51,735 nt of DNA from Deltaproteobacteria bacterium (lineage in GTDB: Bacteria; Desulfobacterota; DSM-4660; Desulfatiglandales; HGW-15), in the NCBI GenBank assembly GCA_037380925.1, contig JARRRH010000001.1:1-51735 (forward strand). Reading direction: 5' to 3'. Below are positions 21,901 through 36,368 of this stretch, in pieces. Both the position numbers and the translations under genes were made by a program. The number at the start of each line of letters is the position of its first letter. Positions within the stretch are counted from its first letter, which is position 1. A model generated the notes under the pieces. It had not been told where the DNA came from, made no database searches, and saw only the letters and a program-made list of their open reading frames with translations.

Positions 21901-24900
21901 TACCTGTTTGCGGCCCAGGATATCGGCGAAGTGGGGAATCCTATCACCACCGAGGTCGGCAATATCGAAGGCAAGTCCACGGCGGGCAGCACCTGGGTAA
22001 CGAACACCGGTCCGTTGACCGTGGGCGGGGTGGTGGACAGCTCTGACCCGGGGATGCTGGGTGGAGGGTCTGCCATCATCACGGCGACAAGTCCCATTAC
22101 TGTGGAAGAGGATTTGGTGTTCCCCAATGAAATCATCCTGACGGCAGGAGACTCCCCGGATGCCGGTGACGACCTGGTCGTGGTCAGCGGCAAGAGAGTC
22201 CAGTCAGAGTATGTGGAGTTGCGAGCAGGGGACAACTTGATCATTGAAGAAGACGCCGTGATCGAGGCGACAGCCCTGAAGCTCTTCGGAGATTACGGCA
22301 ATGCCGACCCGGAGGTCGGGTCCACCATAGACCCGCGGGGAGAGATCATTGCCACGTCGGTTGAGATCCTCGGTGAAGCCGACGGCGATGTGTTTGCTCT
22401 CGGGAATCTTTCGGCACCTGCGAGCGTTACAGGCGGGGGAGGGACAGACGAGCTGATCGGACCCGACGAGCCCGGTGGGCCGGACGGGCTCATCAATAGC
22501 TGGGAGATCCTGGGTCCCAACAGCGGCAATCTAAATGAGATGTTTATCATTTTTTCCGAGGTGGAGAGCCTTACCGGCGGCTCCGGGGATGACACTTTCT
22601 ATTTCCGCGGTCCCGGCAGCGTGGACGGCGTCGTGGACGGCGGTGCCGGGTTCGACATCCTGGACTTCCTCCAGTCCGATTATATCCAGCAGGCGGCTCA
22701 GGATTTCATAGACGTGGACCTGCCCATCGGAGACCCTCCTCCCGTGCCCTTTGCGGCAACCGGGGGGATTGTCCGGATCGAGGACATCAAGGTCATTCTC
22801 TTGGCGGAACTCCAGGAGGACGGCACGCTGGTTCTGAACATGGGGCCGCGGGCGGCGGAAAGGCTGACGATCAATACTGAAGACGGCGACGAGGTGTTTA
22901 CCCTGGGTCACGTGAAGGGGGATCCGGCCGATGCGGAGGGGGAGACCATAGCCGTGTCGGCCTTCGGCTTCACCCTGGAATATGACGGGGTTTCCTCAAT
23001 TCGCGGCTCGGGAGGCGAGGGGAACGACACCATCTTCCTCAGCAGTGACATCATGGCTCCGGCCGAACTGGACGGAGGTCCGGGGAGCGACACCTTGACG
23101 GGCGGTGCGGGCAACGACATTTTGCTCGGCGATGCGGGAATCATTACCCGCTCTTACAATGATGACGAGACCCTACGCAAAGATGTGCTTCTGACCGACG
23201 TGGGGATGATCACAGGTGCGTATACGCCAAGCGATTTAGGCTGGAAGGATGTGAGCTCAGCTGTTGTTTCGGATCTATTGGAAGCAGATCTCGTTCTGCT
23301 GACTGGTGCTTATAACGGTGACGGAAGCAAACATTTTGTTGAGAATTCGTGGGGTTGCCTAGAGTGGGAGACCCAGTTGCTTCTCGTCTTGCTCCTTGAG
23401 GACGGAGATGACATCCTTGACGGGGGTGCCGGGGATGACGCCCTGTTCGGCGGCCGCGGGAATGATTCAATTGGGGGCGGCGATGGGCGCGACTACCTGG
23501 TGGGCAACGCCGGGAATGACGACCTGGACGGCGGGGATGAAAACGACATTCTGGTGGGCGATGACGTCACGCGAATCGTACCTGACAGTCCGCTTCCCAA
23601 TGTGTTGCGCGGCCTCCATATGACGGGCGGGAACGGCCACGGTGGAGGAATCGTCCTGGGCGACTCGGGAACAACCATTGTGCCCATCGTCTCGGTTCTT
23701 CCCAATAAGGACCTAGACCCGCTTGTCGGCGTGACGACTCACGTCAGCAGCGACCTTCCCATCCTGCCGGATGACAATGTGCTTGACCGTGCTGATGGCA
23801 CGTACCTGGTGCCCTTGGCCTCGATCGTCACGGACGTGGGGCACCACCTTGATCTCCTTCCCGGCAATGATAGGCTCTTCGGAGGCGAAGGCGATGACAA
23901 GCTTGTAGGCGACAACGCGGTCGTTTTTTCTCCGGGCGTAACGATCAACCAGGCATTTCTTGAATCAGCCTTCGGTATGACATGGGATCTCCTCGCGGCC
24001 CTCGATGATTTCGGAGACTTGATCCATCGACTGCACGACGCCGTAGGAGATGGGGATAACTGCCACCCGTGCTACAGCTACGAGGATGTGGTTGTGGATC
24101 AGACATTCTGTCTGGGGAATGACTTCCTAGACGGCGGTGGCGGCAACGATTTTATGGTAGGCGACGAATTGACGTTGAAGGCCCCCTCGATTGGCGTGCC
24201 GACGGATCTGGTCCACGATTTCCACCACCTGATCAACGACCTTGAGGACGTTGGGGATGAGGCCGACTGGGCACTCCATGAGCTCGATGATGTGGCCCAT
24301 GACCTGCGGGATGACGTGATTCCCGTAAAGCACGGTAAAAAACGGATTAAGGGCCACCTCGTGCACCACATCGACCGCATCTTCGTCGGGAATGACTCGC
24401 TGGTGGGCGGTGACGGAGATGACCTCATGGTGGGTGACAACTGGAGCTACCTCGCACCTGAGATAACAGTCACATCAGGTGGATGGCCGGGCTACCATGG
24501 GTTCTGGCACCATGATCATGGTTGGGGATATGACCGCGGCAACCACTATGGGTGGTACAACGGAGGTCACAACAAGGATGGTCATGACGGACCGGGAGAC
24601 GTGTGGATCGTCGGTAAAGATACGATGGACGGCGGTGGAGGCAATGACGTGATGTTCGGTGACAGTATCGCGCTGACAGAGCCGACCATGGCCTCGACCG
24701 CAGATCTGTGCTGGTGGAAATTCGGAGCTGTTCATCACAAGGTCGAGGACATTCTTGATGACATTGTCAAGATGGGCCAGTATGGCGATGTCAGCGAGAG
24801 CTGCAACGCGGTGAACGGTGGCAATGATTACATTGTCGGCGGTGACGGGGATGACATGCTTTTCGGTCAGGGCGGTAATGACAAGCTCTACGGTGACGCC

Positions 24901-25179
24901 GGTAAGGACTTGCTGGTCGGCGGCTACGGTAAGGATAAGCTGGTCGGTGGTCCGGGCAAGGATAAGCTCATCCAGGGGGTTAGCCGTTACGAGGATTCCA
25001 AAGGGCATAAGCACAAAGGGTGCTATGAGACAAAATGTGCTCCCTGTGCCGCTTGGGTAAGGCATTTTGTGGGGCATCTTGGGAGTGATGGCAGCCACGA
25101 CCCTAACAGCGACATACAGGTGGTCCTTCCCGGCAGGGATCACGGCAAAGCCGACAAGGCCAAGGGAAGCAAGAAATAG
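12913..25179 (+). CDS. Giant beta-helix repeat / RTX protein, C-terminal part (frame open from 12871; probably the same gene as 3714..12875)
   Basis: 4,088-aa ORF that continues the repeat architecture of the upstream ORF. It contains dispersed TG.AV.Y...GL.DG.TYYV...I.LA.T modules and C-terminal RTX nonapeptide blocks (GGAGNDILLGDAG, GGAGDDALFGGRGNDSIGGGDGRDYLVGNAGNDDLDGGDENDILVGDD, GGDGDDMLFGQGGNDKLYGDAGKDLLVGGYGKDKLVGGPGKDKL). Confidence 0.85.
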   Translation: MEDLYGLAIAGQISAGLSLGAQVIVINDNSTQTAFIGLPVVDEANSATIDRAGGTVTVEAKADRTIEAEPYGGGISLGGSIGASVAIVNVGGHTKAYIDDAHIGQGSEWVGAVSVIAESVADVEAYCLAVSGGIFFGISGSIAIADYSPTIEASIIDDADITVANDVTIESHSRADVETDALGVNVGGLAALGASVAISTNEPTINTFIANAAVIATTGSIALRSIHNYDKTGTSRLDQGADANATTGSGSLLLGAAGAYAEAETSAIVDTHIGIGATLFAGGDVSLVSLVNNDAEGKTTGIGGGLVGIGVSLAYATASGSTLTYVDDADVTAGHDLEVTTSTYQDAWAKSLAVAGGILSGAGNVSEATIKPFVSAQIRSGATVNAANEVIVTASTEVTGETDTEGVSAGLLAVGVSEAESTVSSLVTAYVGGANTIIKAGSLSVTAAQSYPTGDYSAKSSATGSSGALVAVNATESTAKTTGVVTSFVADNTVLSISDSIEISAVGDSNQRAEADSNNYGLVAAGGNEADAVSNVQTNAHLGNGVTIGAGDSIGGLTDGGLYYVVVDKDNPNKVKLATSFQNALNKDAENYPDPITVDLGHPAIVRPGHSLRPYSRSSAEGIEFDPLTALDADNDTIDLGPGHDLYTGQTVIYTKGAGPAVTISASGDDYNFARSEAGSGGLVAGSAAEANVTALSTTRAYTADDTDPNDSIQTRLEVSSLTIRADHTAHFDSRTNTLQASAVGFSGSWATNIVGSTVEAEIGRNADITTKDLFVDAINTSRKNLVGPDEYNVEAGSGGVLQGNASESETDIANITHATVGADATITVIGNPFLPGEFRVSAFNDVEGYDDVRLDSGGLIVGSGATSAIRADTNDAIVTIEDGVTITSVGDVDLETRTRGILRVEPQVHTYGLASAAVVDGLARMWSKNEVNVGNSVLIDALGTINLLAGRNSDGTLSYYDIFSHGDELNASVIPISDLGSHGEIKRDHIITVGTMPDSGTELRSARDVNLLAELYHNAEITAYGSGKNWMTALAGGIDSMFGSDGISEEMIGGTATNEKNASVTVNGTIEVGTLKNQELVVDSAVDEQNQNLFIYASTQTGGITFTQSTESLASQLKDEYEYWQDLLYEYSDGDPDHWTPEETAYSLEIQRVEQEMKDLGLWNDHGTADTRDDEPITSYAVPYVTVNNIWAQAGTINVMGQDLLGSGSLNAPGNVTVSITNNSPAYLRVNKITIPDHVGGRVNFNGVDVESNEDIAELNEHKATFDSSVVDESNDWINIETGGFATGDAVIYRNAGDGDAIGGLVDGTTYYVIVLGPDRMQLAETKTDAEAGTPVNITLSGEPSSHRLTAIPVFSTFETATGTSEAPEITITNTFDADAPHPYGEDVRTSEVEIVGDINNILGLVEITSVGSIMVQASINAGDLHIDSEKGNFVMSYTDSMFHVGGNPGGLEGYGWDNVARSYENYTEGNTTITTYHYSGNAASNTSINNALYNSPPGENIITGMNVFISAKYLNINGTIQSGMPERQVTIARSEENAINGAEEAANWWRFGYKGYAELWVNMYGLSTQDYRYFKLPADADDNIDVYYDAELDRLELEPVQVEGGNMQLYGQILSTGYGKLRVLDGYGQIKIENRTKYDLVTKTLDTGHGVQGRLKIIDTAFTDLATGMPRVREYWRENGQVQMKEYFLTPPDEDPVILFEGQDGGDRTTTYSPLDGWRYYWNTGRNFTEQTITTYGSSSWLDIDALAADPKNIVDGPHRTSMEPRALREGEYFAYEPSVTDDYTYDFTRYLGMLVESINVNSDTITFTTAHNIKENAQAVVYRKDTGGDIGGLKSNTTYFVILVPNSPNTIKLAKTKSEALGGTAINLTGSLTGTHRFGITRRELIRQWETSTWYGTTTYYKKVGEYTPQKDVHSHSIRADRDIDIEFIGWDAGDPNVQASVATNNSNLLVDGAVRNAVGSTTLTAGKEIKLINDEAVIGGRDITLNGGTGIGKDKTLRTNLNGGVLNAQTSPGDIRVEEISGELKVGHVDAFGDVELTAQYDIVAEDSSSLVRGGKVTLTSKYGDIGTLGTDGTASEPASDALPLRVDTGETGRDVLLAKASGEVYLSEVDGALRLEGVETYGDVRIEVLNGDLEDGNLNEARDTRTIQQLEQMWDRMWATEATADNSINATISAYENVKTRDYHAYWRYRNRQTDDSVSGLTNGVTYYVVVDSDDASRIKLAATSADATAAEPVVLDLTASTETGAEHRLYALGTWSPILFASSEYSSGGAVDSDADTIFLGPHSLTTGDAVTYYRVVPYDSTFQVTLSDAERDYYTEYYSNQGLDPETAIATLENKRTTEYHTLHRTYGDVGNSSMISDLNDHDADIYDSTWSYDDEDPNLHRTFGGSEIADSTIDLSVHVFTNGQAVMYRSGGGSITGLEDGKIYYVVLDDADPGKIGLAATQADATAPTPKTITFTHENGDSHYFSDGEVLKQRAAWSENQLKNSVSATITRPKTVSGTTITKEAPNIKGSNIALKVSGNVGVATGQFEITLPLSSLSPEQKTALAAAERDDVTFYADEAGTIRISPDGLYVAGVDAGDNKILFDRSHGFYNGQAVIYTNGGNPSIGIEGGGSLVDGQTYYVISSGLASNEIRLATTQGGPAIDLASGLTGDTQIIFPKVAKLRIELVEDVDVETDGVVTASGGSDVNLGSEGIIRIDQVLAGEPGEMDGKVRLKVQEALTNDRTDDLDPVNIRSGDLILEAEEESIGSASAALLLDLASGASLIARANHDIYLRGYQCDLSIQEVFANDFVDLRADGSILDALDDDSTTAAWNINAHSVYLEAGTGADTEGSIGSATNYLEVDLHGSALPAFADQDIYLHDIAGDMYVDEVISFYGSVGLKAAASILDIDEGIPGNPLVDVYGNNITLVAEYGTIGASGDDLDIDSSFYDPGTLTSSSEFNTYLIEPLGDLSLYTVQTNAGTAFIAAPAGRILNGNPGGHNVISGKTYLFAAQDIGEVGNPITTEVGNIEGKSTAGSTWVTNTGPLTVGGVVDSSDPGMLGGGSAIITATSPITVEEDLVFPNEIILTAGDSPDAGDDLVVVSGKRVQSEYVELRAGDNLIIEEDAVIEATALKLFGDYGNADPEVGSTIDPRGEIIATSVEILGEADGDVFALGNLSAPASVTGGGGTDELIGPDEPGGPDGLINSWEILGPNSGNLNEMFIIFSEVESLTGGSGDDTFYFRGPGSVDGVVDGGAGFDILDFLQSDYIQQAAQDFIDVDLPIGDPPPVPFAATGGIVRIEDIKVILLAELQEDGTLVLNMGPRAAERLTINTEDGDEVFTLGHVKGDPADAEGETIAVSAFGFTLEYDGVSSIRGSGGEGNDTIFLSSDIMAPAELDGGPGSDTLTGGAGNDILLGDAGIITRSYNDDETLRKDVLLTDVGMITGAYTPSDLGWKDVSSAVVSDLLEADLVLLTGAYNGDGSKHFVENSWGCLEWETQLLLVLLLEDGDDILDGGAGDDALFGGRGNDSIGGGDGRDYLVGNAGNDDLDGGDENDILVGDDVTRIVPDSPLPNVLRGLHMTGGNGHGGGIVLGDSGTTIVPIVSVLPNKDLDPLVGVTTHVSSDLPILPDDNVLDRADGTYLVPLASIVTDVGHHLDLLPGNDRLFGGEGDDKLVGDNAVVFSPGVTINQAFLESAFGMTWDLLAALDDFGDLIHRLHDAVGDGDNCHPCYSYEDVVVDQTFCLGNDFLDGGGGNDFMVGDELTLKAPSIGVPTDLVHDFHHLINDLEDVGDEADWALHELDDVAHDLRDDVIPVKHGKKRIKGHLVHHIDRIFVGNDSLVGGDGDDLMVGDNWSYLAPEITVTSGGWPGYHGFWHHDHGWGYDRGNHYGWYNGGHNKDGHDGPGDVWIVGKDTMDGGGGNDVMFGDSIALTEPTMASTADLCWWKFGAVHHKVEDILDDIVKMGQYGDVSESCNAVNGGNDYIVGGDGDDMLFGQGGNDKLYGDAGKDLLVGGYGKDKLVGGPGKDKLIQGVSRYEDSKGHKHKGCYETKCAPCAAWVRHFVGHLGSDGSHDPNSDIQVVLPGRDHGKADKAKGSKK
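23005..24977 (+). repeat. RTX (GGxGxDxUx) calcium-binding repeat blocks separated by non-RTX spacers
   Basis: At least seven blocks of glycine/aspartate nonapeptides are visible in translation between these coordinates. Confidence 0.8.
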
Positions 25180-25221
25180 GGGAATTTAAAAGGCATCTTG
25201 CAGCCACGGAATGGAAAAGAG

Positions 25222-25265
25222 GGCCGAACCACACAAGGACAAACTTCTGGTGGTTCGGCCTTTTT
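25222..25265 (+). terminator. Intrinsic terminator after the giant gene
   Basis: An 11-bp perfect GC-rich stem, GGCCGAACCAC (25222-25232) / GTGGTTCGGCC (25250-25260), is followed directly by TTTTT (25261-25265), 43 nt after the stop codon. Confidence 0.8.
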
Positions 25266-25343
25266 AACGGTACAATAGATAAGGGCTTGAAACACAATAA
25301 GGCTGACTAATACAAACGCACTAAACAGAATAATGTCACTCTG

Positions 25344-26525
25344 GTGGAAAAGGAAGAGCATAGCAGTAAAGAGAATGGAAGAGGTTCAAATCCCGCAACG
25401 GAGAATACCCAGGTAAAGATCCGGTGGGATAGATCCGATACCCGGAGTGCCTACGCTGATCGTTTCAATGTGATGGTCACCCGGGAGGAGATTATTCTGT
25501 GTTTTGGTTTGAACCAGGCCCTTGATGTCGGCCAGAAGGAGATGACGGTTCAACTTTCGAACGGAATCGTCCTGAGTCCCTTTGCAGCCAAACGGTTAGC
25601 CAATGCACTGAACCGTGTCCTCCAGGACTATGAGTCCAAATATGGTCCTCTGAAGGTGAAGGCTGCGCCGTCAACGGATTGGGCTCAGATTGCGCCACTC
25701 AGCGAGAAGCCCCCCTTTTCTGAGAAAGCAGGCCTGCTTTTTCATCTCGTAAAAAACCTCAACACAGAATACGGTTTTGAGCGTTCTTTCAAGATTTCCG
25801 AAAAAACATTGCTTGGAAATCGATTCCTGTTCACCATGAGTAAGCACGCCATAAGACAAAATCCCGATGAAGCCATATTGAATATCTGCAGAAAAATGGA
25901 TATGCCGAAAAAATTGCTGGAAGTCTTCCATGGAAACTTGCCATCTGCAAATTATGTCCATTTCGGGTTTGAGGAGGACGAAAAAAGTTACATTTACAAA
26001 GCCTATTTGGAGTTCTGGACCGACTGGGAAAATGAAATTGGGAAAAAGTCAAATCCGTCCGACCCGTTCTTGGTGCATTTGGGATTCAAGTGGGACGTAT
26101 CCGAGCCTACCCGATGCGTACTGACAAGATACACTTGCTATCCTTTCCTTTCTGTGGAAAATATCCTGGAGAGGTTGTCAAAGGTCTTTTACGGTGACCG
26201 CTACAGAACCCCTTTTGAGATCGCAAAAGGCATTGTCACTCTTGCTTCAAATAGAATATCCCACGAAAAGATCTTATATATCGAGGCAGAAGAAGAGAAC
26301 AATCCGAGAAGATCATTCGACATGAATATGTACAGGGCCAAAGTTCGTTTAGAAGAACTTTACCCTCTTTTGATGGACATGTGCCAGCACTATTCAATTC
26401 CCACAGCGGAATTTGATATCTTATATGACCAATTCAAAGCCAAATTATTTGGCCACTTGTCCGGTGGTATTGACAGGGAGGGAAAGGATTTCTTAACCGT
26501 GTACTACGGGGTGGAAGGGCATTAA
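25344..26525 (+). CDS. DUF3467-like N-terminal module fused to an uncharacterised ~270-aa domain
   Basis: GTG start. Residues ~23-105 (QVKIRWDRSDTRSAYADRFNVMVTREEIILCFGLNQ...VQLSNGIVLSPFAAKRLANALNRVLQDYESKYGPL) fit the DUF3467 pattern as I recall it (YSN..i.hs..EFvlDF...RIvLtP.hAKRLl.aL..ni.kYE..fG). I do not recognise the remainder. Confidence 0.75.
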   Translation: MEKEEHSSKENGRGSNPATENTQVKIRWDRSDTRSAYADRFNVMVTREEIILCFGLNQALDVGQKEMTVQLSNGIVLSPFAAKRLANALNRVLQDYESKYGPLKVKAAPSTDWAQIAPLSEKPPFSEKAGLLFHLVKNLNTEYGFERSFKISEKTLLGNRFLFTMSKHAIRQNPDEAILNICRKMDMPKKLLEVFHGNLPSANYVHFGFEEDEKSYIYKAYLEFWTDWENEIGKKSNPSDPFLVHLGFKWDVSEPTRCVLTRYTCYPFLSVENILERLSKVFYGDRYRTPFEIAKGIVTLASNRISHEKILYIEAEEENNPRRSFDMNMYRAKVRLEELYPLLMDMCQHYSIPTAEFDILYDQFKAKLFGHLSGGIDREGKDFLTVYYGVEGH

Positions 26526-26590
26526 CTCAGGAAGCCTTGGAAGGTGCCGAGGCGACTGTTATCGTAGAATGTTAATTGTGAAAGAAGAGC

Positions 26591-27493
26591 ATGACTTACA
26601 CAAGAGTTGATCTTACCCAATACGTTGTCATTTCTATTTGTTTTAGTTGTAACAACGACTGCAGCATCTGTATGCTGTCGGGGCTTAAAAGAAAGTTTCC
26701 TGCCATAGGCTTCGACCGTTTCAAGAAAGTGATCATCGATATTGTGAATAGCGGCAGGTTCGAGAATCTGATCCTTTCAGGAGCAGAGGTGACGACCTTT
26801 AACGATCTGGACAAGTATGTCCAATTCGCCGCTTCTCTTGGATGGTTCAAGAAAATACAAGTACAGACAAACGGCAGAAGACTCAGTGAAAAAGGATATC
26901 TGAGGCATCTGATTGATGGTGGCGTCAATGAGTTCTTCATCAGCATCCACGGCCTTGACGACGTTCATGATGCGATCACGCGCATGCGAGGGTCCTTCAA
27001 AGAGACGAGGGAAGGCCTTAAAAACCTTGAAGCCTTTGACGTTAATGTGATCAGCAACACGGTTCTGACAAAAACCAATCTTCACGATATGGCTCGCCTC
27101 ATGACCTTTTTGTCCAATGAAAGGATCAGCGAGATTCAGTTGTGGAACTTCTTCCCTATGGAGAGAACGGACACCAAAGATCTTGTGGTAAGCATGAAGG
27201 ATTTCACGGAAGTTCTCCCCGAAATACTTTCCATTGTAAAGAGAGCCGGTAAGCCCTTGGTTTTGAAAAGTTTTCCCGAGTGTCTTTCTATGGGGGAGCC
27301 TGGGTTCTTCGACAGCTTGTTTCCGGTGACCGTGCTTCCAGATGTTTTTTGGAGAAAATTCAGCGAAAGCGGGTTCGGAACGTGTATTTACAGGCAGAGA
27401 GAGGAGTGCAAGGCTTGGAAATGCTGGGGTCTCTCCAGTGCCTATGTTCAGAAATACGGAGATGAAAGAAATCTCCTGAAGCCTATGATGTGA
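26591..27493 (+). CDS. Radical SAM protein (300 aa, single core, Cys-rich C-terminus)
   Basis: CNNDCSIC (CxxxCxxC) near the N-terminus, followed by LILSGAEVT and QVQTNG strands typical of the radical SAM half-barrel. C-terminal CIYRQREECKAWKCWG. Confidence 0.85.
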   Translation: MTYTRVDLTQYVVISICFSCNNDCSICMLSGLKRKFPAIGFDRFKKVIIDIVNSGRFENLILSGAEVTTFNDLDKYVQFAASLGWFKKIQVQTNGRRLSEKGYLRHLIDGGVNEFFISIHGLDDVHDAITRMRGSFKETREGLKNLEAFDVNVISNTVLTKTNLHDMARLMTFLSNERISEIQLWNFFPMERTDTKDLVVSMKDFTEVLPEILSIVKRAGKPLVLKSFPECLSMGEPGFFDSLFPVTVLPDVFWRKFSESGFGTCIYRQREECKAWKCWGLSSAYVQKYGDERNLLKPMM

Positions 27494-28362
27494 GAAAGAC
27501 CATGGACGGATTGGAATACATGACCGCTCAGGATGTCTTCTTTGATTTCTGCTTGTGGGAATACACCCCTCTAGCGCCCTGGGAAAACAAATTCAGCTCC
27601 TCAACCCTGCTTTTTCACTCCTTTAAAGTCGCCGGTCTCGATGAGCGGATTTTCGATCTTATCCAAGCGATCCGTAAAGGGATCGGTCTTTCACGCACAG
27701 TGTGGGGAGTCAAGCAGTTAGGAGACGATATCCGATGGGAATTCTACTTTTATGATTACAGGAGAAGAGAAAGGGAGAGGTCCATTACGAAAGTCCTGGA
27801 AATCATGCGGCCTTTTGTCCGCTGTGGGATGAAAGTCAATGAAAATTACCACTATTTCATGTTCTCTATCGATATTAGCGGCGATCTTTTTGCAAAAGCC
27901 ACGGAATTAGAAGAGATCCATATGTACATCGGCAACGTCGGCAGCACCGTTTCATCAGGAATCTGTTACTCCTTAAAAAATGAGGGGACAAGGCTTGAAA
28001 ATTTTTACTTCTTTTTTGATGCGAAAACACAGGGGGATGAGATCTTAGGTAAGGTCGTTAGTTCTGCCTATATTGACACAACCGTAATAAAAATCGATCA
28101 AATTCTCTGGCCTGAAATGAGAGACTGCAAGGTCATCGTGGTGGCCAACAAGCAGAGTAATGACGCCGTCTATTTTTCAAGAATCAATGTGGATCAGCTG
28201 ATCTTTTTCCTCAACAGGATGAACTATCCAAATGAGCTTATCTCTTTCATAGAGAAAAACAGGGCCAAGCTGGACCACCTGCAATATGACGTCGGTTATG
28301 ACTACAAGATGGACGGAAAAGATTTAATGATTCTGAAAAGCGGCTACTATGGGATTTTTTGA
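27490..28362 (+). CDS. Uncharacterised protein, distant paralog of the C-terminal domain of the 25344 gene
   Basis: GTG start overlaps the preceding stop (GTGA at 27490-27493); alternative ATG at 27502. By-eye collinear similarity to gene 25344: VWGVKQLGDDIRWEFYFYDY vs VHFGFEEDEKSYIYKAYLEF; ...DGKDLMILKSGYYGIF vs ...EGKDFLTVYYGVEGH. Confidence 0.7.
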   Translation: MRKTMDGLEYMTAQDVFFDFCLWEYTPLAPWENKFSSSTLLFHSFKVAGLDERIFDLIQAIRKGIGLSRTVWGVKQLGDDIRWEFYFYDYRRRERERSITKVLEIMRPFVRCGMKVNENYHYFMFSIDISGDLFAKATELEEIHMYIGNVGSTVSSGICYSLKNEGTRLENFYFFFDAKTQGDEILGKVVSSAYIDTTVIKIDQILWPEMRDCKVIVVANKQSNDAVYFSRINVDQLIFFLNRMNYPNELISFIEKNRAKLDHLQYDVGYDYKMDGKDLMILKSGYYGIF

Positions 28363-28394
28363 ATGACTGCTGGAAATGACCTTCGAGAGTAACG

Positions 28395-29507
28395 ATGATC
28401 ATCAGCATATACAACCTCCACAATATGTGTGAAAATAATACTTTTTTCCTCTCCAGAGCCTGGCGCTACTTTGAGCTCAACGGCCACACGGTCACGGATG
28501 CAGGGGATGAAGTTGACCTGGTTTTCATCGGCGGTTGTGCAGTCACGGACCTGATGCGTTCGCGGTGCGAAGACACTATCCTGAAAAGGATACAACAACT
28601 CCAGCAGGCATACTTTGTGATCTTCGGATGCCTGGCAGCCTTCCCGGAGGGATTCCGATCGATAACTGGCCGGAATGCTGATCGCCTTCGCCTTATTCCT
28701 TACCAGGACAGCGGTGAACTGGACGAACTGATTAAGGCACGGATCCCCTTTGACATGGTCAATATTAGTCGGCTGAAAGGACACGTACCCTACCAACCCC
28801 GGGTGGGGCCGGACGATTTCTATGTGCTGATCGCCCAGGGCTGCGTTAATAATTGCAGTTACTGCAACATAAAAAGGGCCAAGGGAAACGTGGTGAGCCG
28901 TTCGGAAGAAGCCATCGAGGGTGAGGTGAGGGAGTTATACTCTCTTGGAATCCGGACCGTGACGCTTTTGGGTGACGACTGCGGCTCGTATGGTCTCGAT
29001 CGCGGCTCGACCCTGCCGAAGTTGATCACGCAGCTCAGCAGGGTGGGGCCCGAGCTGCGGTACAAACTCTACACGGTTTTCCCTCCCCTTTTCCTACAAT
29101 ACGCCGCACAACTGGAGCCGTTCTTTGCACAGCGCCGCGTGCCGTATGTGTGCCTTCCAGTACAGTCAGCAGCCCCTCGGGTTCTGGACCTGATGAATCG
29201 GCACTACGATCCTGACCAGCTGGCAGGGGTGATCGCTCGTCTCAGGTGTCTGGATCCCGAGGTCTTTGTCTACTCCCATTTCATCTTTAACTTTCCGACG
29301 GAAACCTGGGGCGAATTCGAGCAGAGCATTGCTTTCGCACGGCACTTTGACCACTGTGTATTCATCGGCTACGGCGAAAATAGCTCGACGCGGGCAGCAG
29401 CGCTTACCCCGAAATGCAGCAACCATGAATTAGAGGACAAGGCGCGGCGACTTGAGGAGTTGGTCGAGCGGGGTGAGTTAAGGGCCTTCGTGGTGCCGTG
29501 CCCTTGA
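28395..29507 (+). CDS. MiaB/RimO-family methylthiotransferase-like radical SAM protein without a TRAM domain
   Basis: N-terminal three-Cys domain (NMCENN ... GGCAVTD ... FGCLAAF). Radical SAM core IAQGCVNNCSYCNIKRAKGNVVSRS...TLLGDDCGSYG. The protein ends soon after the core, leaving no room for a TRAM fold. Confidence 0.8.
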   Translation: MIISIYNLHNMCENNTFFLSRAWRYFELNGHTVTDAGDEVDLVFIGGCAVTDLMRSRCEDTILKRIQQLQQAYFVIFGCLAAFPEGFRSITGRNADRLRLIPYQDSGELDELIKARIPFDMVNISRLKGHVPYQPRVGPDDFYVLIAQGCVNNCSYCNIKRAKGNVVSRSEEAIEGEVRELYSLGIRTVTLLGDDCGSYGLDRGSTLPKLITQLSRVGPELRYKLYTVFPPLFLQYAAQLEPFFAQRRVPYVCLPVQSAAPRVLDLMNRHYDPDQLAGVIARLRCLDPEVFVYSHFIFNFPTETWGEFEQSIAFARHFDHCVFIGYGENSSTRAAALTPKCSNHELEDKARRLEELVERGELRAFVVPCP

Positions 29508-29566
29508 TCCCGGGATCGGGCTGGCCGTACACGCGTTTGGGGCTCAGGCCAAAACAGACGTGGTGA

Positions 29567-30748
29567 ATGAAAATGTTACCCAGCACACACGACTTTCAGC
29601 ATGGGATGATTTCCATTTTAAATGCGAGCAAACGGTGCGAGCCCAGCGCCTTTTTGTTCACGAAAGCGGTGAGGTTTTTTCTGGTGAACGGGTATGGCAT
29701 AGGGAACAATATCGACCAGAGCGAGATAATCCTGGTGAACACATGCTGCGTTACGGAAGACAAAATAGCAGCCTCCAGGGAGGCTCTCGACTGCGCCAGA
29801 AACCAAGGGAATGGAAAGCGGGTTGTCCTGTTCGGCTGTATGGCCAGTCTCCCTCTTCCGGGATTGGAACGGGAGTATCTGATCTGCATCGGCCCCAAGA
29901 ATCTGGACGCGCTGGATACTCATTTCCCGCACCATACGTCGGTCAATGATATCCCTGTCAATCAACTGTCCCCGCAGCTCTACGAACCAGGACAGGGACT
30001 CGGATACGGAGACTACTTTGTGCTGATTGCCCAGGGCTGCTCTAACCAGTGCTCCTACTGCAACATTAAGCGGTGCAAAGGAGAGGTGAGAAGCGAACCT
30101 GCCGAAAGGATCCTTCCGCAGATCCGGAGAGGCCTTTCCCTGGGGGTGCAGGAATTTGCCCTTTTGGCTGATGACTGTGCGAGCTATGGTCGTGATCTTG
30201 GGACCGACCTCGTGCAGCTCATTGAACAATTGTTCACCTCAAAACCCGATTTCGGTCTGAAACTGGGGTATGTTTATCCGCAATTTATCCTGAGGCATTT
30301 CACCAGGTTGAAGAAAATCTTCGGAACCGGACGGATCAGGTACCTCAACATTCCGGTGCAGTCAGGCTCACAAAGAATCCTGGATCTCATGAACCGGCGT
30401 TATTCCATCGACAGAGTAATGGAAGCCGTCCGGGAGTTGCACGAGGTGGCACCACGCACGACCTTCTGCACGCACATCATGATCAACTTTCCGACCGAGT
30501 CCCATGACGATTTTCTTAAATCCCTCGCGGTTGCAGATGGCTTCGACGAGGTGCTCTTCCTGCATTACTCGGACAATCAGGACACCGCCGCTGCCCGCAT
30601 CCTCCCTAAAGTGTCTGAGCCAGAGGTCCGCAGGCGGCTGGACATGGCTTCCCATTACGCGAATCATTGGAGGCGGGGGCAAAGCGCCGTCATCAAAGAT
30701 TTCAACTGTGATATCCCCTACAACATGCTTAGAACCATCGAAGGATAG
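29567..30748 (+). CDS. Second MiaB/RimO-family methylthiotransferase-like radical SAM protein without a TRAM domain
   Basis: KRCEPS ... NTCCVTED ... FGCMASL, then IAQGCSNQCSYCNIKRCKGEVRSE...LLADDCASYG. Paralog of the preceding gene. By alignment to that paralog, ATG 29606 (MISILNASKRCE) may be the true start. Confidence 0.8.
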   Translation: MKMLPSTHDFQHGMISILNASKRCEPSAFLFTKAVRFFLVNGYGIGNNIDQSEIILVNTCCVTEDKIAASREALDCARNQGNGKRVVLFGCMASLPLPGLEREYLICIGPKNLDALDTHFPHHTSVNDIPVNQLSPQLYEPGQGLGYGDYFVLIAQGCSNQCSYCNIKRCKGEVRSEPAERILPQIRRGLSLGVQEFALLADDCASYGRDLGTDLVQLIEQLFTSKPDFGLKLGYVYPQFILRHFTRLKKIFGTGRIRYLNIPVQSGSQRILDLMNRRYSIDRVMEAVRELHEVAPRTTFCTHIMINFPTESHDDFLKSLAVADGFDEVLFLHYSDNQDTAAARILPKVSEPEVRRRLDMASHYANHWRRGQSAVIKDFNCDIPYNMLRTIEG

Positions 30749-30751
30749 AAC

Positions 30752-32287
30752 ATGGCCCTGCCTCTGATAAAGGTCGTGCAGTTAACAGTAACAAACAGGT
30801 GCCAATGCAATTGTCAGCACTGTGGTGTCTCAAAGCTCCGACAAACGATCAAGGGCGAACTCACATTGAAGCAGATCGATTTACTATTTCGGGACTTCAA
30901 GCTTGCCGGATGCCTGGTCGTTGATTTATTCGGCGGCGAGCCCACGTTGCGTCAAGACCTCTTCGAAATCATCGAGCTTGGGAAATTCTATGGGTTCATC
31001 GTGTCGTTGGAAACGAACGGATATGTCGTGGATCACGCGTACATGGAACGGCTCGCTGCAGCAGGACTGGACCTGATTTATCTAAGCCTGGATGATTACC
31101 GGGCAGAGATCCATGACAGAATACGAAGGAAGAAGGGAAGCTTTGAGAGGGCTGTCCGTGCCCTGGAGCTTGGAGCAAAGACGGATATCGTCATGCACGT
31201 CTCGACGGTTCCTCAGACGCGCGAGTATTTCACCAATGGAAATATCAATCGGTTCATGGAGTTTGTGCTGGAGCACGGCGCGGAGCAGGTGCGTCTCCTG
31301 CTGCCCCGATTTGTCGGCCATTCGATTCGTGAGGGATGTGGTCCTCTGGGTGCCGGTGAAGAGAGGGAGCTCTTTTCCTATGTCTCCGCGGGCTATTACG
31401 ATTACATGTACGTGCATACCCCGGGGACGCCCCTTGGGGAGACTAATGTGTGCACGGCCAAGCAGGTCTTCTGTCACGTCATGAGTAACGGCTGGGTTGC
31501 GCCTTGCCCTTATTTTCCGCTGGTTTTCGGGGATGCAACGCGGGAATCGATCGTTGATATCTTTGAGCGTATCCAGGGACATCCTCTGGTGCGGCTTGGC
31601 GGCGACTATTGTCCTATGAGGAATGAGGAGTACATCAACACCCATATCCGAAAGTTGGGGCTCGATCGACCGTTTTTCCCTATTACGGTCGACAACCAGA
31701 TCAATCTCGGCGCTCCGTGCGGGGCGAGATGCCCGGGATGCGCTCACGGAGTGCGATCGGTTCCGAGGTCCGCTGACGAAATTGTTCGAGAGATAAGGGA
31801 GGTACCGTCAGAGTATAGGCGCCTAGAATTCTATGGGGGGGACGCATTCCTGCGGGATGACCTGTTTGCCATCCTCGACCACGTTTCTGCAGCAAAAAAT
31901 ATTACTTTGTGGTCGGCGTGCAGCCAAATGCCGAAAGACCGAGCTTTCATGGACCGCTTGCGATCCTATCGCATTGAGGCTATCAAGGTTCCTTTGCCTT
32001 TTCAGCCCATCGGTGACATTGGGCGCTCCGATCCCGGTAATGGGTTTAGAGAGGCATTGCAAGGAGCGTCCTCAATGAGTAGGTGGGGGTTTCCCATCCA
32101 CCTCTATGTACCGATGATTCGTATGGCAGAATTTCACGCGGCTTTTGCGACGAGCGTTCATGAGTTGGGCGCGGAAAGGCTATACGGTTTCGCAAGAGAC
32201 CTTGAACACCCCTTAGCCAATTCCGTCGCCTGCTTTGGCAGAGAACTGGAGCGTGTGCGGCTCTTATGGGCACGAGAAGCGACCTAA
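30752..32287 (+). CDS. Radical SAM protein with two tandem CxxxCxxC cores and a SPASM/twitch-like Cys cluster (511 aa)
   Basis: Core 1: NRCQCNCQHCG (30800-30823) then DLFGGEPTL. SPASM-like CTAKQVFCHVMSNGWVAPCPYFPLVFGD...YCPM. Core 2: PCGARCPGCAHG (31718-31741) then EFYGGDAFL. The two halves align to each other. Confidence 0.85.
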   Translation: MALPLIKVVQLTVTNRCQCNCQHCGVSKLRQTIKGELTLKQIDLLFRDFKLAGCLVVDLFGGEPTLRQDLFEIIELGKFYGFIVSLETNGYVVDHAYMERLAAAGLDLIYLSLDDYRAEIHDRIRRKKGSFERAVRALELGAKTDIVMHVSTVPQTREYFTNGNINRFMEFVLEHGAEQVRLLLPRFVGHSIREGCGPLGAGEERELFSYVSAGYYDYMYVHTPGTPLGETNVCTAKQVFCHVMSNGWVAPCPYFPLVFGDATRESIVDIFERIQGHPLVRLGGDYCPMRNEEYINTHIRKLGLDRPFFPITVDNQINLGAPCGARCPGCAHGVRSVPRSADEIVREIREVPSEYRRLEFYGGDAFLRDDLFAILDHVSAAKNITLWSACSQMPKDRAFMDRLRSYRIEAIKVPLPFQPIGDIGRSDPGNGFREALQGASSMSRWGFPIHLYVPMIRMAEFHAAFATSVHELGAERLYGFARDLEHPLANSVACFGRELERVRLLWAREAT

Positions 32288-32306
32288 ACCGGAAGGAAGC
32301 ACCAGG

Positions 32307-33542
32307 GTGAATTTCAATAAGAATCGGGTATTGCTACTTTATCCCGCTGCAGAGACAGTGCAATGGAACCTTATCCCGTTGTCGTTGCTCTACGTGGCTC
32401 AACCTCTTATCGAAGAGGGTATAAATGTGGAGATCATTGATCAAAGGCTTGAAAGAGATTTTTTTGGAAGAGTGCATCAACGAATCACTCCAGATCTTAT
32501 ATGTATCGGAATTAGCTGCATTACCGGGCCTCAAATAGAGCAGGTCATTAGGATCTCTGAATTCATCAGGAAGGTTACAAACACTCCTATCGTGCTTGGA
32601 GGACCCCATCCCACTCTCTTGCCCGAACAGACGCTCGAGTCTGGACTTGTCGATTATGTTGTGATCAGTAAAGGTGAAGTACCTTTTTTGAACCTTGTAA
32701 GAGCGCTGAAAATGAATGGATCTGCTCAGAGAGTTCCCCAGGTGGGGTACAAGGAAAACGGAAAAATTGTTATCCATAAAGGCCACGTGCCGGAAATCAT
32801 TGTTCGCAGAATACCCTACCACCTCGTCTCCCGGTACGGGAGACCTTCGACCGTTCCCATCATCTCTTCCTACGGGTGTCCATACCATTGCTCGTTTTGT
32901 GTGGAAAAGGTCTTACATCCGACCTACTATGAAATACCGATCCGTGATGTCTTGTTCATGGTCGAGGAAGCCCTAAGCCTAGGTCCAGAGTTCATAGACT
33001 TTATTGATGATAATTTTCTCCTAAACAGTAAAAGGGTGATTGAACTTTTTTCTTCCTGCCAGGGGAAAGGCCTCGACTTCCGTTGGTTATGTACGGGCAG
33101 GGTGGATGGGGTTTCAAGTCTGGATGACGAAACCTTGAGGTTTTTGAGAAAAAGGGGTTTGGTATGTATCTATTTCGGAATAGAATCTGGTTCTAAAAAG
33201 ATATTGAAATTGATTAATAAAAGGATAACGCCGGAGATGGTTCTAAGGCTCAATTTGAGACTGAGAAAAGAGGGGATCATCCCACACTACAGTTTTATGG
33301 CTGGGTTCCCAACGGAGACGGGAGAGGATATCGGAAAGACGATAGGATTAATGAATCGGCTGAAAGAGGAAAACCCCGAAGCCGTGATTTGGAAGATCAA
33401 CCAGTATACTCCTTATCCTGGCACCGAATTGTTCGACCTCGCCATCCAAAACGGTTTTAAGCCTCCTGAGAAATTCGAGGAATGGAGTCATATCCATTTT
33501 TATTCTAAACACCATGCGGGGCCATACGACCTGCACTACTAG
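32307..33542 (+). CDS. B12-binding-domain radical SAM protein (class B type)
   Basis: GTG 32307 follows GGAAGGAAG, 19 nt after the previous stop; the tracked ORF start at 32235 overlaps the upstream gene. Rossmann-like B12 domain (VLLLYPA..., ICIGISCITGPQ, PIVLGGPHPT), then SSYGCPYHCSFCVE. Confidence 0.8.
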   Translation: MNFNKNRVLLLYPAAETVQWNLIPLSLLYVAQPLIEEGINVEIIDQRLERDFFGRVHQRITPDLICIGISCITGPQIEQVIRISEFIRKVTNTPIVLGGPHPTLLPEQTLESGLVDYVVISKGEVPFLNLVRALKMNGSAQRVPQVGYKENGKIVIHKGHVPEIIVRRIPYHLVSRYGRPSTVPIISSYGCPYHCSFCVEKVLHPTYYEIPIRDVLFMVEEALSLGPEFIDFIDDNFLLNSKRVIELFSSCQGKGLDFRWLCTGRVDGVSSLDDETLRFLRKRGLVCIYFGIESGSKKILKLINKRITPEMVLRLNLRLRKEGIIPHYSFMAGFPTETGEDIGKTIGLMNRLKEENPEAVIWKINQYTPYPGTELFDLAIQNGFKPPEKFEEWSHIHFYSKHHAGPYDLHY

Positions 33543-33661
33543 TAAAAATGCATTAAATCACGTGAGACGGGCCCCTCTCCACCTTTCGCGTTGACCAGGA
33601 GAGAGGAAAGCACTAAATCTCATGTGCTTCTGCAAACAAGAATAGATCAGAAAAGGTTCAT

Positions 33662-35014
33662 ATGGCTTCGGGGAATCATCAACGGAAGAACCAAGGCAAA
33701 GAGTTTGATTATCTCTGCGTGGATGACTTTATTAAGAACCTCTTTGATGCCCGAGCCCTAGCGACTGCATTTGAAATACGGCTTATCGACTCCCTTCTTC
33801 AGGACAAACATGCCACGGTTGATTCCCTAACAGTACAATTGGGCATGGACAGCCGTGGAATGCGCTTACTTCTTGACCTTCTCCTTGCCAATCGCGTGGT
33901 CGAAAATAAGAATGGCGACCTGAGTCTCACAGAAGAGTTTGCTCATGCGCTACAATTTCGTGAGCTGTTAGAGTTGAAACTCATCATGACAAATTTCGCC
34001 GCCCATGACCTCTTGGATTACTTTAGTGAATTGGTGAGTCGCCCTGAGCAATTTGTGAACAAAGCCCGCTTTTTCAAATTATTTTCTTATAATAGATGTT
34101 TTGACTATAGCCAGGAGAATTACGAGCTGACCAAACGGTGGATGCGGATTACGACCGTCTTGACCAAATACGAGGCGCAGGCATGTATCAAATACCACGA
34201 CTTCAGCCGATACAGACGTATTTTGGACATCGGAGGAAACAGTGGCGAATTTGTCCGCCAGATTTGCAAGATATACCCGAGGGTTTCAGCTACGGTTTTT
34301 GACCTCCCTCTTGTTTGCGATATCGGGCTGGAGCATATCCGGTCCGAATCCGAAGCGGATAGGATAACATTTATTAAGGGAAACGCATTAACCGATCCTT
34401 TGCCGGAGGGTTTTGATCTGATCACCTTTAAATCCATGCTCCATGATTGGCCGGAAAGAGAGGCAAAGAAGTTCATGGAAAAAGCGATCCACTCTTTAGC
34501 GTCTGGAGGAACATTGCTGATTTTCGAGAGGGGTCCGATTGAAATTGGTGAGACTCCATTCCCGTATTCAATGATTCCATTCCTTGTTTTCTTCCATTCT
34601 TTCCGATCACCGGTAATATACGAAGAGCAGCTTGAAATGGACCACGCGACGTCATACATGGCGAAAGATAGCAAAGATAACAGCAGTGAGAAGTCCGGCA
34701 TGAGCAGCAGCGCCGCACAGGTCGGCGATCAGGTGAGAATCCGCTGGGACGGTTCCAACATGAGGAGCGCTTATGCCAACGTTTTCAATGTCACCGCTGC
34801 GAGGGAGGAAGTTGTCCTTTTGTTTGGGATGAACCAAGCCTTTGATGCGGGCCAGAAAGAACTCAAGGTCCAGCTCTCCGACCGAATCGTCCTGAGCCCG
34901 TTCACAGCCAAACGGATGCTTACCGTGCTAAACAATGTCATGAAGGACTACGAGTCGAAATACGGCCCCCTTGACGTGCAACCCTCTCAACCAACGGACT
35001 CTTCGTTACAATAG
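33662..35014 (+). CDS. Class I SAM-dependent O-methyltransferase (family-2 type with N-terminal winged-helix dimerisation region) fused to a C-terminal DUF3467-like module
   Basis: SAM motif RILDIGGNSGEF, then ATVFDLP, ITFIKGNAL, DLITFKSMLHDWPE and GGTLLIFE. C-terminal residues (34730-34978) QVRIRWDGSNMRSAYANVFNVTAAREEVVLLFGMNQ...RIVLSPFTAKRMLTVLNNVMKDYESKYGPL closely match the N-terminus of gene 25344. Confidence 0.8.
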   Translation: MASGNHQRKNQGKEFDYLCVDDFIKNLFDARALATAFEIRLIDSLLQDKHATVDSLTVQLGMDSRGMRLLLDLLLANRVVENKNGDLSLTEEFAHALQFRELLELKLIMTNFAAHDLLDYFSELVSRPEQFVNKARFFKLFSYNRCFDYSQENYELTKRWMRITTVLTKYEAQACIKYHDFSRYRRILDIGGNSGEFVRQICKIYPRVSATVFDLPLVCDIGLEHIRSESEADRITFIKGNALTDPLPEGFDLITFKSMLHDWPEREAKKFMEKAIHSLASGGTLLIFERGPIEIGETPFPYSMIPFLVFFHSFRSPVIYEEQLEMDHATSYMAKDSKDNSSEKSGMSSSAAQVGDQVRIRWDGSNMRSAYANVFNVTAAREEVVLLFGMNQAFDAGQKELKVQLSDRIVLSPFTAKRMLTVLNNVMKDYESKYGPLDVQPSQPTDSSLQ

Positions 35015-35147: not shown

Positions 35148-36167
35148 CTAATAGCCGCCGTAGGCCTGGAGTTCCTCCTTGTTTATCTTGACGATCCAGG
35201 GGTCTTTGGACATGCGGAGGAGAGGCTTCATCTGCTGACCCGCAGCCAATGCCTCTGAAATGCCCTGAAAGAAACCAACGCGAAGCCTGATCCATTCCTC
35301 CCCTGCTAAAGAGCATTTGGTGAGGTAGACATGGTAACCGTTTTTCATGAGAAGAACGGCGGATTCAACCATTCCATCGGGGGACCGCCCTGAGGCAAGA
35401 TCGACCACCCAGAGCTTGTCGCCGAGTGCGTTCAAATTATGGGAGACCTCTTCAGGGGTCACATACTTGAGAGGAACCCCTTCGCGGAGATTCGCGTCCG
35501 GGAGGTTTTCTGACGCCTTCATCCCCCCAAACACATCCATGTTGAGACGGTAAATGGAAGGCCACTTGAGTGGGTCGCCGTAAACATCCTCGCGACCGGC
35601 GATCCTGAGAAGTGTATCGCCCTTTCGGACCCGGTAATGAGCATACTCGATGGTCCTGTCGGAATCTCCTTCTTTTTCCTCCCGGCCTGTCATTTCAGAG
35701 AAAGGGCCCGGGACTTTCTCGTCAACAGGCTTCGGAAGTTTCGGAGCTACTGCAACAGGTGGGGAATATGGGAGGGGCTTTTCGCTTAGAGCGGCAGGGG
35801 CCGTAAGTTGGCTTTGCAAGAGCTCGAGATTTGTCTTGGCTATCTCAAGCAGGTCCTTTCCCTCTAAGGACTGGATGTTGCTCAAATTGGCTTGTTCCAC
35901 AGGCTGAAGCGCGATCACCCTCTCGTACATTTTCCGAGCCTTTTCAAGGCGTCCTGTCTCGTGGTAGACAACCCCCATATTGACCAGTGCATAAGGGTTG
36001 TCCGGGTTCAGGGAGAGCGCCTCCTCCAGGTGAATTTCTGCTTCACCATAGTTGCCTCTTGAGATCTCTTCAAACCCCCTGTTTGAAAGGACCACGTCCT
36101 TATTGGCGCAACCGAGCCCAAAAGCACCGAGCAGGAGAACCACTGAGACCAACCGGAAACCCCTCAT
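35148..36167 (-). CDS. TPR / LysM-like / SPOR-domain envelope (lipo)protein
   Basis: ATG 36167 (MRGFRLVSVVLLLGAFGLGC, signal with Cys) follows GGGGA. TPR: GNYGEAEIHLEEALSLNPDNPYALVNMGVVYHETGRLEKARKMYERVIALQP. LysM-like: YRVRKGDTLLRIAG...WPSIYRLN. C-terminal SPOR-like: WVVDLASGRS...IRLRVGFFQGISEALAAG. Confidence 0.75.
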   Translation of the reverse strand: MRGFRLVSVVLLLGAFGLGCANKDVVLSNRGFEEISRGNYGEAEIHLEEALSLNPDNPYALVNMGVVYHETGRLEKARKMYERVIALQPVEQANLSNIQSLEGKDLLEIAKTNLELLQSQLTAPAALSEKPLPYSPPVAVAPKLPKPVDEKVPGPFSEMTGREEKEGDSDRTIEYAHYRVRKGDTLLRIAGREDVYGDPLKWPSIYRLNMDVFGGMKASENLPDANLREGVPLKYVTPEEVSHNLNALGDKLWVVDLASGRSPDGMVESAVLLMKNGYHVYLTKCSLAGEEWIRLRVGFFQGISEALAAGQQMKPLLRMSKDPWIVKINKEELQAYGGY

Positions 36168-36368
36168 AATATATCCCCATTTCCTAAATCGTATCGGTTC
36201 TCGATAATACACCTATTTGTGGGCAAATAGTAGGCAAGATTGGCAGGTTTTTAAGGTCTGCCTCGCCCGGGTGCACAGCATAAAATGTACTTCGATCAAA
36301 AAAGCGGTTGAGGATCTCTTAGCCGGCGGAGTTCAGGAAATCGTCGAGGATTTTCAGTGTTTTTTTGG

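Follow-up and report, generated by a model that had tools for sequence, protein, structure and literature searches.

The window studied here is a 51,735-nucleotide stretch of DNA, contig C1 of a metagenome-assembled genome (MAG; 4.0 Mb, 659 contigs, 83% complete) of a Deltaproteobacteria bacterium. Eight genes on the + strand, named g1 to g8, fill positions 25344-35014. Two of them encode predicted aromatic prenyltransferases, and the others encode radical SAM (rSAM) enzymes, including two methylthiotransferases (MTTases), and an O-methyltransferase (OMT). The source organism, judged to resemble sulfate reducers, is present in salt-marsh and marine-sediment metagenomes; the names of related proteins place it near the Desulfobacterota (Syntrophobacterales/Desulfobacterales). 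The sequencing runs listed for it include none of RNA, which leaves expression neither supported nor contradicted. The genes and their boundaries are as follows.

25217..25265, + strand, rho-independent terminator: 16-bp GC-rich stem, loop of 17, then TTTTT; minimum free energy (MFE) -29.5 kcal/mol, z -5.9 against shuffles
25344..26525, + strand, g1: DUF3467 module (residues 12-104) and predicted ABBA/PT-barrel aromatic prenyltransferase domain (residues ~121-393); Pfam, AlphaFold2 (AF2), Foldseek and VIA
26591..27493, + strand, g2: small rSAM with CNNDCSIC and without SPASM; Pfam Radical_SAM; partner of the core in nearly all loci
27490..28362, + strand, g3: predicted ABBA/PT-barrel aromatic prenyltransferase, 290 aa, no Pfam model; AF2, Foldseek and VIA; most conserved core gene
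28395..29507, + strand, g4: MiaB/RimO-like MTTase lacking the TRAM domain, cassette gene 1; UPF0004 and Radical_SAM
29567..30748, + strand, g5: second TRAM-less MTTase, of a distinct ~390-aa clade; UPF0004 and Radical_SAM
30752..32287, + strand, g6: 511-aa rSAM/SPASM enzyme, last gene of the MTTase cassette; Radical_SAM and SPASM
32307..33542, + strand, g7: B12-binding rSAM, likely a C-methyltransferase; PF02310 and PF04055
33662..35014, + strand, g8: family-2 OMT of small-molecule type with a C-terminal DUF3467; Methyltransf_2, Dimerisation and DUF3467
35148-36212, - strand, convergent gene for a TPR/SPOR protein, downstream of g8

An earlier, sequence-only reading of this DNA had described eight co-directional genes lying between a strong upstream terminator and a downstream convergent gene. 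On recheck, its coordinates, strand and gaps all matched, and both boundaries were found again. The g2 and g3 genes overlap by 4 nt (GTGA/ATGA), and g7 starts with GTG at 32307, with TTG at 32235 as an alternative. The terminator begins 38 nt past the stop (25179) of a giant RTX gene upstream. It was not picked up by a consensus terminator scan because of its long loop. It would end the transcript of the giant gene, and the cluster transcript would begin 3′ of it. In GC content, the core genes (0.43-0.48) are below the flanking genes (0.52-0.58), and g4-g6 are unlike g1-g3 and g7-g8.

The inventory of the earlier reading was correct, but the two prenyltransferases (PTs), which are the chemically defining enzymes, had been overlooked and were revealed by structure prediction. 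The PT-barrel consists of 10 antiparallel beta strands built of repeated beta-beta-alpha-alpha units, and ββαα repeats forming this fold were found in the AF2 models of both the g1 C-terminal domain (29-sequence multiple sequence alignment, MSA; pLDDT 80) and g3 (81-sequence MSA drawn from remote relatives, of which g3 has 461; pLDDT 95.7). With Foldseek, the two assignments reached E values of 1e-7 to 1e-8. The top matches of the g1 C-domain were CdpNPT, LimF, DMATS1, and PagF, and those of g3 were FAMD1, AmbP3, AmbP1, KgpF, EpzP, DciF, NphB, and CloQ (E 3.5e-8 to 1e-4). In VIA, the g1 C-domain scored Z 15.9 with CymD, 15.0 with FunA, 14.4 with auraA, 14.3 with DMATS1, and 14.1 with FgaPT2 and PatF, the first unrelated fold appearing at Z 9.8; g3 scored 13.1 with auraA, 13.0 with FgaPT2, and 12.9 with CdpNPT, and nothing outside the PT family exceeded 6.3. 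Atlas embeddings pointed in the same direction, toward PTase_Orf2/Trp_DMAT. Identity to characterised PTs in the structural alignments is low, about 10%. On the strength of the modelled folds, the g1 C-domain and g3 are ABBA/PT-barrel aromatic PTs with a predicted prenyl-transfer activity.

The earlier reading had called g3 a paralog of the g1 domain. At the sequence level this was ruled out, as BLAST detected no similarity between the two (E=5), and they therefore belong to different PT subfamilies; what they have in common is the PT-barrel fold, visible only by structure. Among solved structures, they are closest to PTs that act on small molecules, namely indoles, Trp, and Tyr (DMATS1, FgaPT2, CdpNPT, AmbP1/3, FAMD1), and to PTs of cyclic peptides; diketopiperazines too are among the acceptors of these relatives. 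Known ABBA PTs are mostly those of Actinomycetes, fungi, and cyanobacteria.

The rSAM set (g2 and g4-g7) is complete and its motifs are intact. Pfam and NCBIfam agree with the domain calls that had been made by eye from the letters, namely a small rSAM (CNNDCSIC), an MTTase pair without TRAM, a SPASM rSAM, and a B12-rSAM (CPYHCSFC). The MTTase N-terminal domain (UPF0004) has the Cys triad C12/C48/C79 in g4 and C24/C60/C91 in g5; the rSAM cores are QGCVNNCSYC and QGCSNQCSYC, respectively, and the two proteins share 35% identity. MiaB, RimO, and MtaB carry a C-terminal TRAM domain. In g4 and g5, no TRAM match (PF01938) was found even at E<10, and the TIGR00089 match, which is below cut-off, stops short of the TRAM region. 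Against the equivalog models of MiaB, MtaB, and RimO, every score was under the curated cut-off. The genome has two other, TRAM-containing housekeeping MTTases over threshold, and the idea that g4 and g5 are the housekeeping MiaB or RimO was set aside for this reason. The ~390-aa clade of g5 comprises 211 close homologs. In g6, SPASM (PF13186) was matched at residues 234-272, with many Cys residues besides, and the NCBIfam matches were WgkB, StsB, and PqqE-type models. The g7 product combines a B12-binding domain (PF02310) with an rSAM domain (PF04055, CPYHCSFC). Its best NCBIfam models are B12-rSAMs of the PhpK/BchE/HpnR type, below cut-off, and its best relative within the MAG's own family is just 35% identical. 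A defence-system reading was also considered and rejected, since PADLOC returned only generic viperin-like rSAM matches and a weak OMT match.

The last gene, g8, has the catalytic domain (Methyltransf_2, PF00891) and the N-terminal dimerisation domain (PF08100) of family-2 OMTs. Its relatives in the PDB are DnrK, the hydroxyindole OMT (ASMT), AlpH, and CalO6, all OMTs of small-molecule natural products. The DUF3467 module in g1 and the second one fused to the g8 OMT had been noticed before; Pfam concurs, and the two modules are 61% identical. Is the fusion a constant feature? Reads of marsh metagenomes cover the region contiguously at ~35-40x, and the dominant population in the two best-matching runs (X1/X2 contigs) has a 14-nt deletion at 34637-34650. 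Through the resulting frameshift, g8 becomes a 325-aa OMT with a separate DUF3467 gene after it (ATG 34657), and this split form is the one seen in most other loci. For this reason, the fusion described earlier is judged from the reads and loci to be strain-specific or a MAG artifact: it exists in this assembly but is not constant between populations. A low-depth contig from another run (X6) passes straight from 22271 to 34713, a hint of a relative in which this site is without most of the cluster.

A profile hidden Markov model of 28 DUF3467 modules matched no solved structure, and the Atlas neighbours of the module are standalone DUF3467 proteins only. Inside the g1 model, its predicted fold consists of four strands and one long helix, at low to moderate confidence. 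A full-text literature search for DUF3467 gave a single irrelevant match. A standalone DUF3467 of 114 aa, ~51-60% identical to the cluster modules, is encoded elsewhere in the same genome as the cluster (L001; G000 contig C276, 710-1054), where it adjoins an FHA-domain protein and a 429-aa membrane protein. Thus, DUF3467 works outside the cluster too.

Is this gene set found elsewhere? A metagenome scan seeded with g3 gave 80 loci, which were tallied by tblastn and gene-neighbourhood look-ups. In dozens of independent metagenomic loci, a core order is kept: the DUF3467-prenyltransferase gene, the small rSAM gene (g2), the PT gene (g3), and the family-2 OMT gene. The DUF3467 near the core OMT is either a separate small gene or fused, and in some loci the DUF3467-prenyltransferase has two PT domains (~700 aa). 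In many loci, short ones included, g4 homologs (62-85%) lie immediately after g3. L030, L061, L065, and L080 keep the whole g4-g5-g6(-g7) series at 70-79% identity; L109 and L114 keep it in part. The g7 gene occurs in a subset of loci only (L061, L068, L080, L081), and its orthologs (68-79%) are confined to cluster loci. Some variants of the cluster also have a gene for a ~205-aa P-loop kinase resembling PRK08233/uridine kinase (6133-6744 in L015/L107 of G009; 17296-17919 in L080; 12606-13451 in L109), whose substrate for phosphorylation could be nucleoside-like or of another type.

A g3 homologue was found in four of the 401 Desulfobacterota genomes, and every cluster gene is single-copy in the genome. 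Going by this distribution, the cluster is accessory, horizontally spread, and mobile. The earlier reading had named co-conservation as one of the points on which it would stand or fall, and the genes proved to be both accessory and co-conserved. They are not adjacent housekeeping rSAM genes, because they are rare, low in GC, and single-copy, and because separate housekeeping MTTases with TRAM are present.

The g4-g5-g6 trio was also found in the same order at ~60% identity without PT, OMT, or DUF3467 genes in L110/L111, a Thermodesulfobacteriota contig where a small DUF3192 protein precedes the cassette, in L112, a 2.4-Mb contig, and in L113, a 646-kb contig where the cassette adjoins heme genes. 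Since the MTTase/SPASM trio also travels alone, the eight genes are, judged by gene order, a recurrent composite of a prenyltransferase core, a mobile MTTase/SPASM cassette, and an optional B12-rSAM. The view of the eight genes as one obligate unit was set aside on the same ground (L110-L113). The layout of the eight-gene operon proposed earlier is right, but it is not a fixed unit: the cassette stands alone elsewhere, the B12-rSAM occurs in some loci only, and the g8 fusion is variable. In L110, L112, and L113, the cassette, arranged as MTTase-MTTase(-MTTase)-SPASM rSAM, looks like a separate uncharacterised modification system. A scan of GTDB genome contigs with g1 gave a single relative, L004 (GTDB MAG SpSt-1152, DSAQ01000235). 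This g1 homolog (DUF3467-PT, 50% identical) has no rSAM genes beside it and adjoins a dihaem cytochrome c and an RND efflux system.

Upstream of the cluster, the window contains three further genes of interest.

172-2070, + strand, accessory SecA-like motor ATPase, truncated, 632 aa, motor domains only; the housekeeping SecA is on contig C52
1943-2917, + strand, HlyD-family membrane-fusion protein
12913..25179, + strand, giant RTX Ca-binding-repeat protein (HemolysinCabind), 4088 aa, directly upstream of g1

The 4088-aa open reading frame (ORF), with its RTX repeats, overlaps by 86 nt with another giant ORF on the + strand, of 3101 aa (3693-12998), in a different frame. These may be two genes, or a single giant gene broken by a frameshift that is either real or an error in the MAG. 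Giant secreted-type proteins (RTX Ca-binding, Ig, cadherin, PKD) lie beside the prenyltransferase core in ~12 of the 16 long loci, mostly directly upstream and on the same strand. As a baseline, only five ORFs in this genome reach 1500 aa, and one is met in ~3-11% of random 20-kb windows. The cassette-only loci (L110-L113) have no giant neighbour. The pair of SecA-like and HlyD genes also accompanies the cluster in L038 and, immediately adjoining it, in L109, with RTX/HlyD proteins near by in both; in L015, a TolC gene comes right after the OMT gene. The SecA-like/HlyD pair and the RTX proteins may form an unusual secretion system for giant adhesins. This recurrent neighbourhood went unmentioned in the earlier reading.

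What does the cluster make? The explanation that I favour, at about even confidence, is a mobile, modular cluster for a prenylated, rSAM-tailored small molecule, probably aromatic or indole-like. The enzyme identities (through folds and motifs) and the conservation are evidenced directly, and from these I infer the pathway steps. In such a pathway, g3 and the g1 C-domain would attach prenyl groups from dimethylallyl or geranyl diphosphate (DMAPP/GPP) to an aromatic acceptor of primary metabolism, most likely Trp, an indole, Tyr, or a phenol. The small rSAM g2, and the SPASM enzyme g6 where present, may carry out a radical rearrangement or C-C bond formation or cross-linking of the scaffold. 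The TRAM-less MTTases g4 and g5 would add methylthio (SCH3) groups to the scaffold at sp2 carbons, in the way that MiaB modifies adenine at C2. C-methylation would be the task of the B12-rSAM g7, and the oxygen methylated by the family-2 OMT g8 would be that of a phenol or hydroxyindole. The DUF3467 modules, whether fused or standalone, may bring the enzymes together as adaptors for docking or substrate handling. In some genomes, TolC/HlyD-type export genes are near the cluster, and the product may exit by this route. Multi-step radical tailoring, with C-S chemistry by MTTase, C-methylation by B12-rSAM, and O-methylation, was already proposed from the letters and is supported by the enzyme set. 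The earlier suggestion of a methylthiolated or methylated aromatic came near to the explanation favoured here but left out the prenyl chemistry.

Several points weigh against this explanation. Peptide-prenylating enzymes (LimF, PagF, PatF, KgpF) are among the relatives of the PTs, so the acceptor may instead be a peptide or protein. The cassette, which also occurs without the prenyltransferase core, may act on another substrate. No gene for an aromatic precursor (polyketide synthase, shikimate branch, or nonribosomal peptide synthetase) was found in the cluster. The core repeatedly adjoins giant secreted adhesins and not small-molecule exporters. The proposed product and acceptor are deduced from sequences and models.

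The strongest rival, unlikely in my estimation, is that the cluster modifies the neighbouring giant RTX/Ig/cadherin adhesins in the cytoplasm with prenyl, SCH3, and methyl groups before export via SecA/HlyD/TolC. The presence of giant genes in about three quarters of the long loci is far above the baseline, the window, L109, and L038 have an accessory SecA and HlyD near the cluster, and L015 has TolC, peptide PTs are among the structural relatives, and the DUF3467 modules could serve as docking domains. However, the g8 OMT is of small-molecule type, the cassette-only loci have no giant neighbours, and giant genes are common in MAGs, so that the synteny may reflect a shared island; moreover, there is no precedent for so large a protein prenylated by an ABBA PT. 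To my knowledge, radical and prenyl chemistry has never been seen on a secreted protein. A more specific form, argued by analogy with the SecA2 systems and rather less probable, is a dedicated system in which, ahead of export, the adhesin or its cleavage peptides would receive prenyl groups from the soluble PT-barrel PTs and methylthio groups from the TRAM-less MTTases. It is also unlikely that the locus is a composite island in which the PT core has a product of its own and the co-mobile MTTase-MTTase-SPASM cassette, like the B12-rSAM, serves unrelated functions; the cassette, for example, may modify its own protein or nucleic acid substrate. Such an island would fit the cassette standing alone, in the same order at ~60% identity, in L110/L111, L112, and L113, the B12-rSAM being in only part of the core loci, and the different GC content of g4-g6. 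Yet the cassette is with the core in at least seven independent loci (the window, L030, L061, L065, L080, L109, L114), and g4 is often immediately 3′ of g3, in short loci too. This repeated co-mobility of cassette and core suggests a functional link.

Two other explanations were weighed. The rSAM/SPASM enzymes, the peptide PTs among the relatives (LimF, KgpF, PatF), and the DUF3467 modules fused to or beside several enzymes recall a pathway for ribosomally synthesised and post-translationally modified peptides (RiPPs), with a precursor encoded elsewhere and DUF3467 as leader-binding modules resembling RiPP recognition elements (RREs). This is very unlikely. No conserved small ORF or precursor peptide gene was found across loci in the intergenic or flanking space of the cluster, which argues against a standard RiPP, and the earlier observation that 25.3-35.0 kb holds no precursor peptide, protease, or regulator was borne out; the DUF3467 profile matched no solved structure and its fold is predicted at low confidence, while the OMT is of small-molecule type. 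It is hardly credible that the enzymes decorate a membrane lipid or an isoprenoid quinone, such as a prenyl-quinone carrying a methylthio group in the manner of methionaquinone. Both prenylation and methylthiolation are represented, and the NCBIfam neighbours of g7 include lipid and hopanoid B12-rSAMs, but the cluster is too sparse among genomes for a respiratory quinone, and quinones are prenylated by the membrane enzymes UbiA/MenA, not by soluble ABBA barrels.

If the small-molecule explanation is true, the cluster would stand for a family of prenylated natural products, so far undescribed, made by Desulfobacterota-like anaerobic bacteria living in sediment. ABBA PTs would be joined there with rSAM methylthiolation, B12-dependent methylation, and O-methylation, which could give sulfur-containing prenylated aromatics. 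If the adhesins are the substrate, the cluster would carry out a protein surface modification of a new kind. The known substrates of MTTases are tRNA and ribosomal protein S12, and the TRAM-less MTTase cassette, a distinct and widespread clade, bears on MTTase action on small molecules or proteins beyond these two.

Full-text literature searches gave no match to the gene set of DUF3467-PT, rSAM, PT, and OMT (with MTTases, SPASM, and B12-rSAM). Nor was the cluster described in the full text of the literature on rSAM with MTTase and OMT, PT with B12-rSAM, TRAM-less MTTases, SecA with HlyD and RTX adhesins, PTs in Desulfobacterota biosynthetic gene clusters, or methionaquinone. The earlier impression that the combination is unlike any characterised cluster thus held within the literature searched, and none of the known systems compared below is a member match.

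The rSAM RiPP clusters (ranthipeptides, sactipeptides) likewise have several rSAMs, including SPASM enzymes such as g6. In contrast, the operon studied here has no precursor peptide, transporter, or protease, and the DUF3467 profile search brought up no RRE; its PTs and small-molecule OMT point to a non-peptide product. The cyanobactin and kawaguchipeptin PTs (PatF, PagF, PirF, LimF, KgpF) have the same PT-barrel fold and are among the top structural matches, but the precursor peptide, the protease (PatA/PatG), and the heterocyclase of those systems are missing here, and the OMT is of small-molecule type. The ms2i6A modification of tRNA by MiaA and MiaB also combines prenyl and methylthio chemistry, and g4 and g5 are of the MiaB/RimO family with the N-terminal Cys-triad domain. 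However, MiaA is a P-loop isopentenyltransferase and not a PT-barrel, and the MTTases of the cluster are TRAM-less and form their own clade. In the accessory SecA2/SecY2 systems, dedicated enzymes glycosylate serine-rich-repeat adhesins. The present locus resembles them in having a SecA paralog and giant adhesins beside dedicated modifying enzymes, the adhesin being a putative substrate by synteny; PTs and rSAM enzymes replace the glycosyltransferases, and an HlyD-type membrane-fusion protein stands in place of SecY2/Asp. Finally, the hapalindole/ambiguine clusters (AmbP1, AmbP3, FamD1) and the fungal DMATS clusters share with this locus a soluble PT-barrel PT as the chemistry-defining step (two here) and tailoring by methyltransferases. 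The closest solved folds of g3 are FAMD1, AmbP3, and AmbP1, and those of g1 are CymD, FunA, DMATS1, and FgaPT2. Unlike these indole and Trp PT clusters, the present cluster is without isonitrile synthases, oxygenases, and Trp-processing genes; it has instead three rSAM classes, two TRAM-less MTTases, and DUF3467 fusions, and it belongs to Desulfobacterota-like anaerobes.

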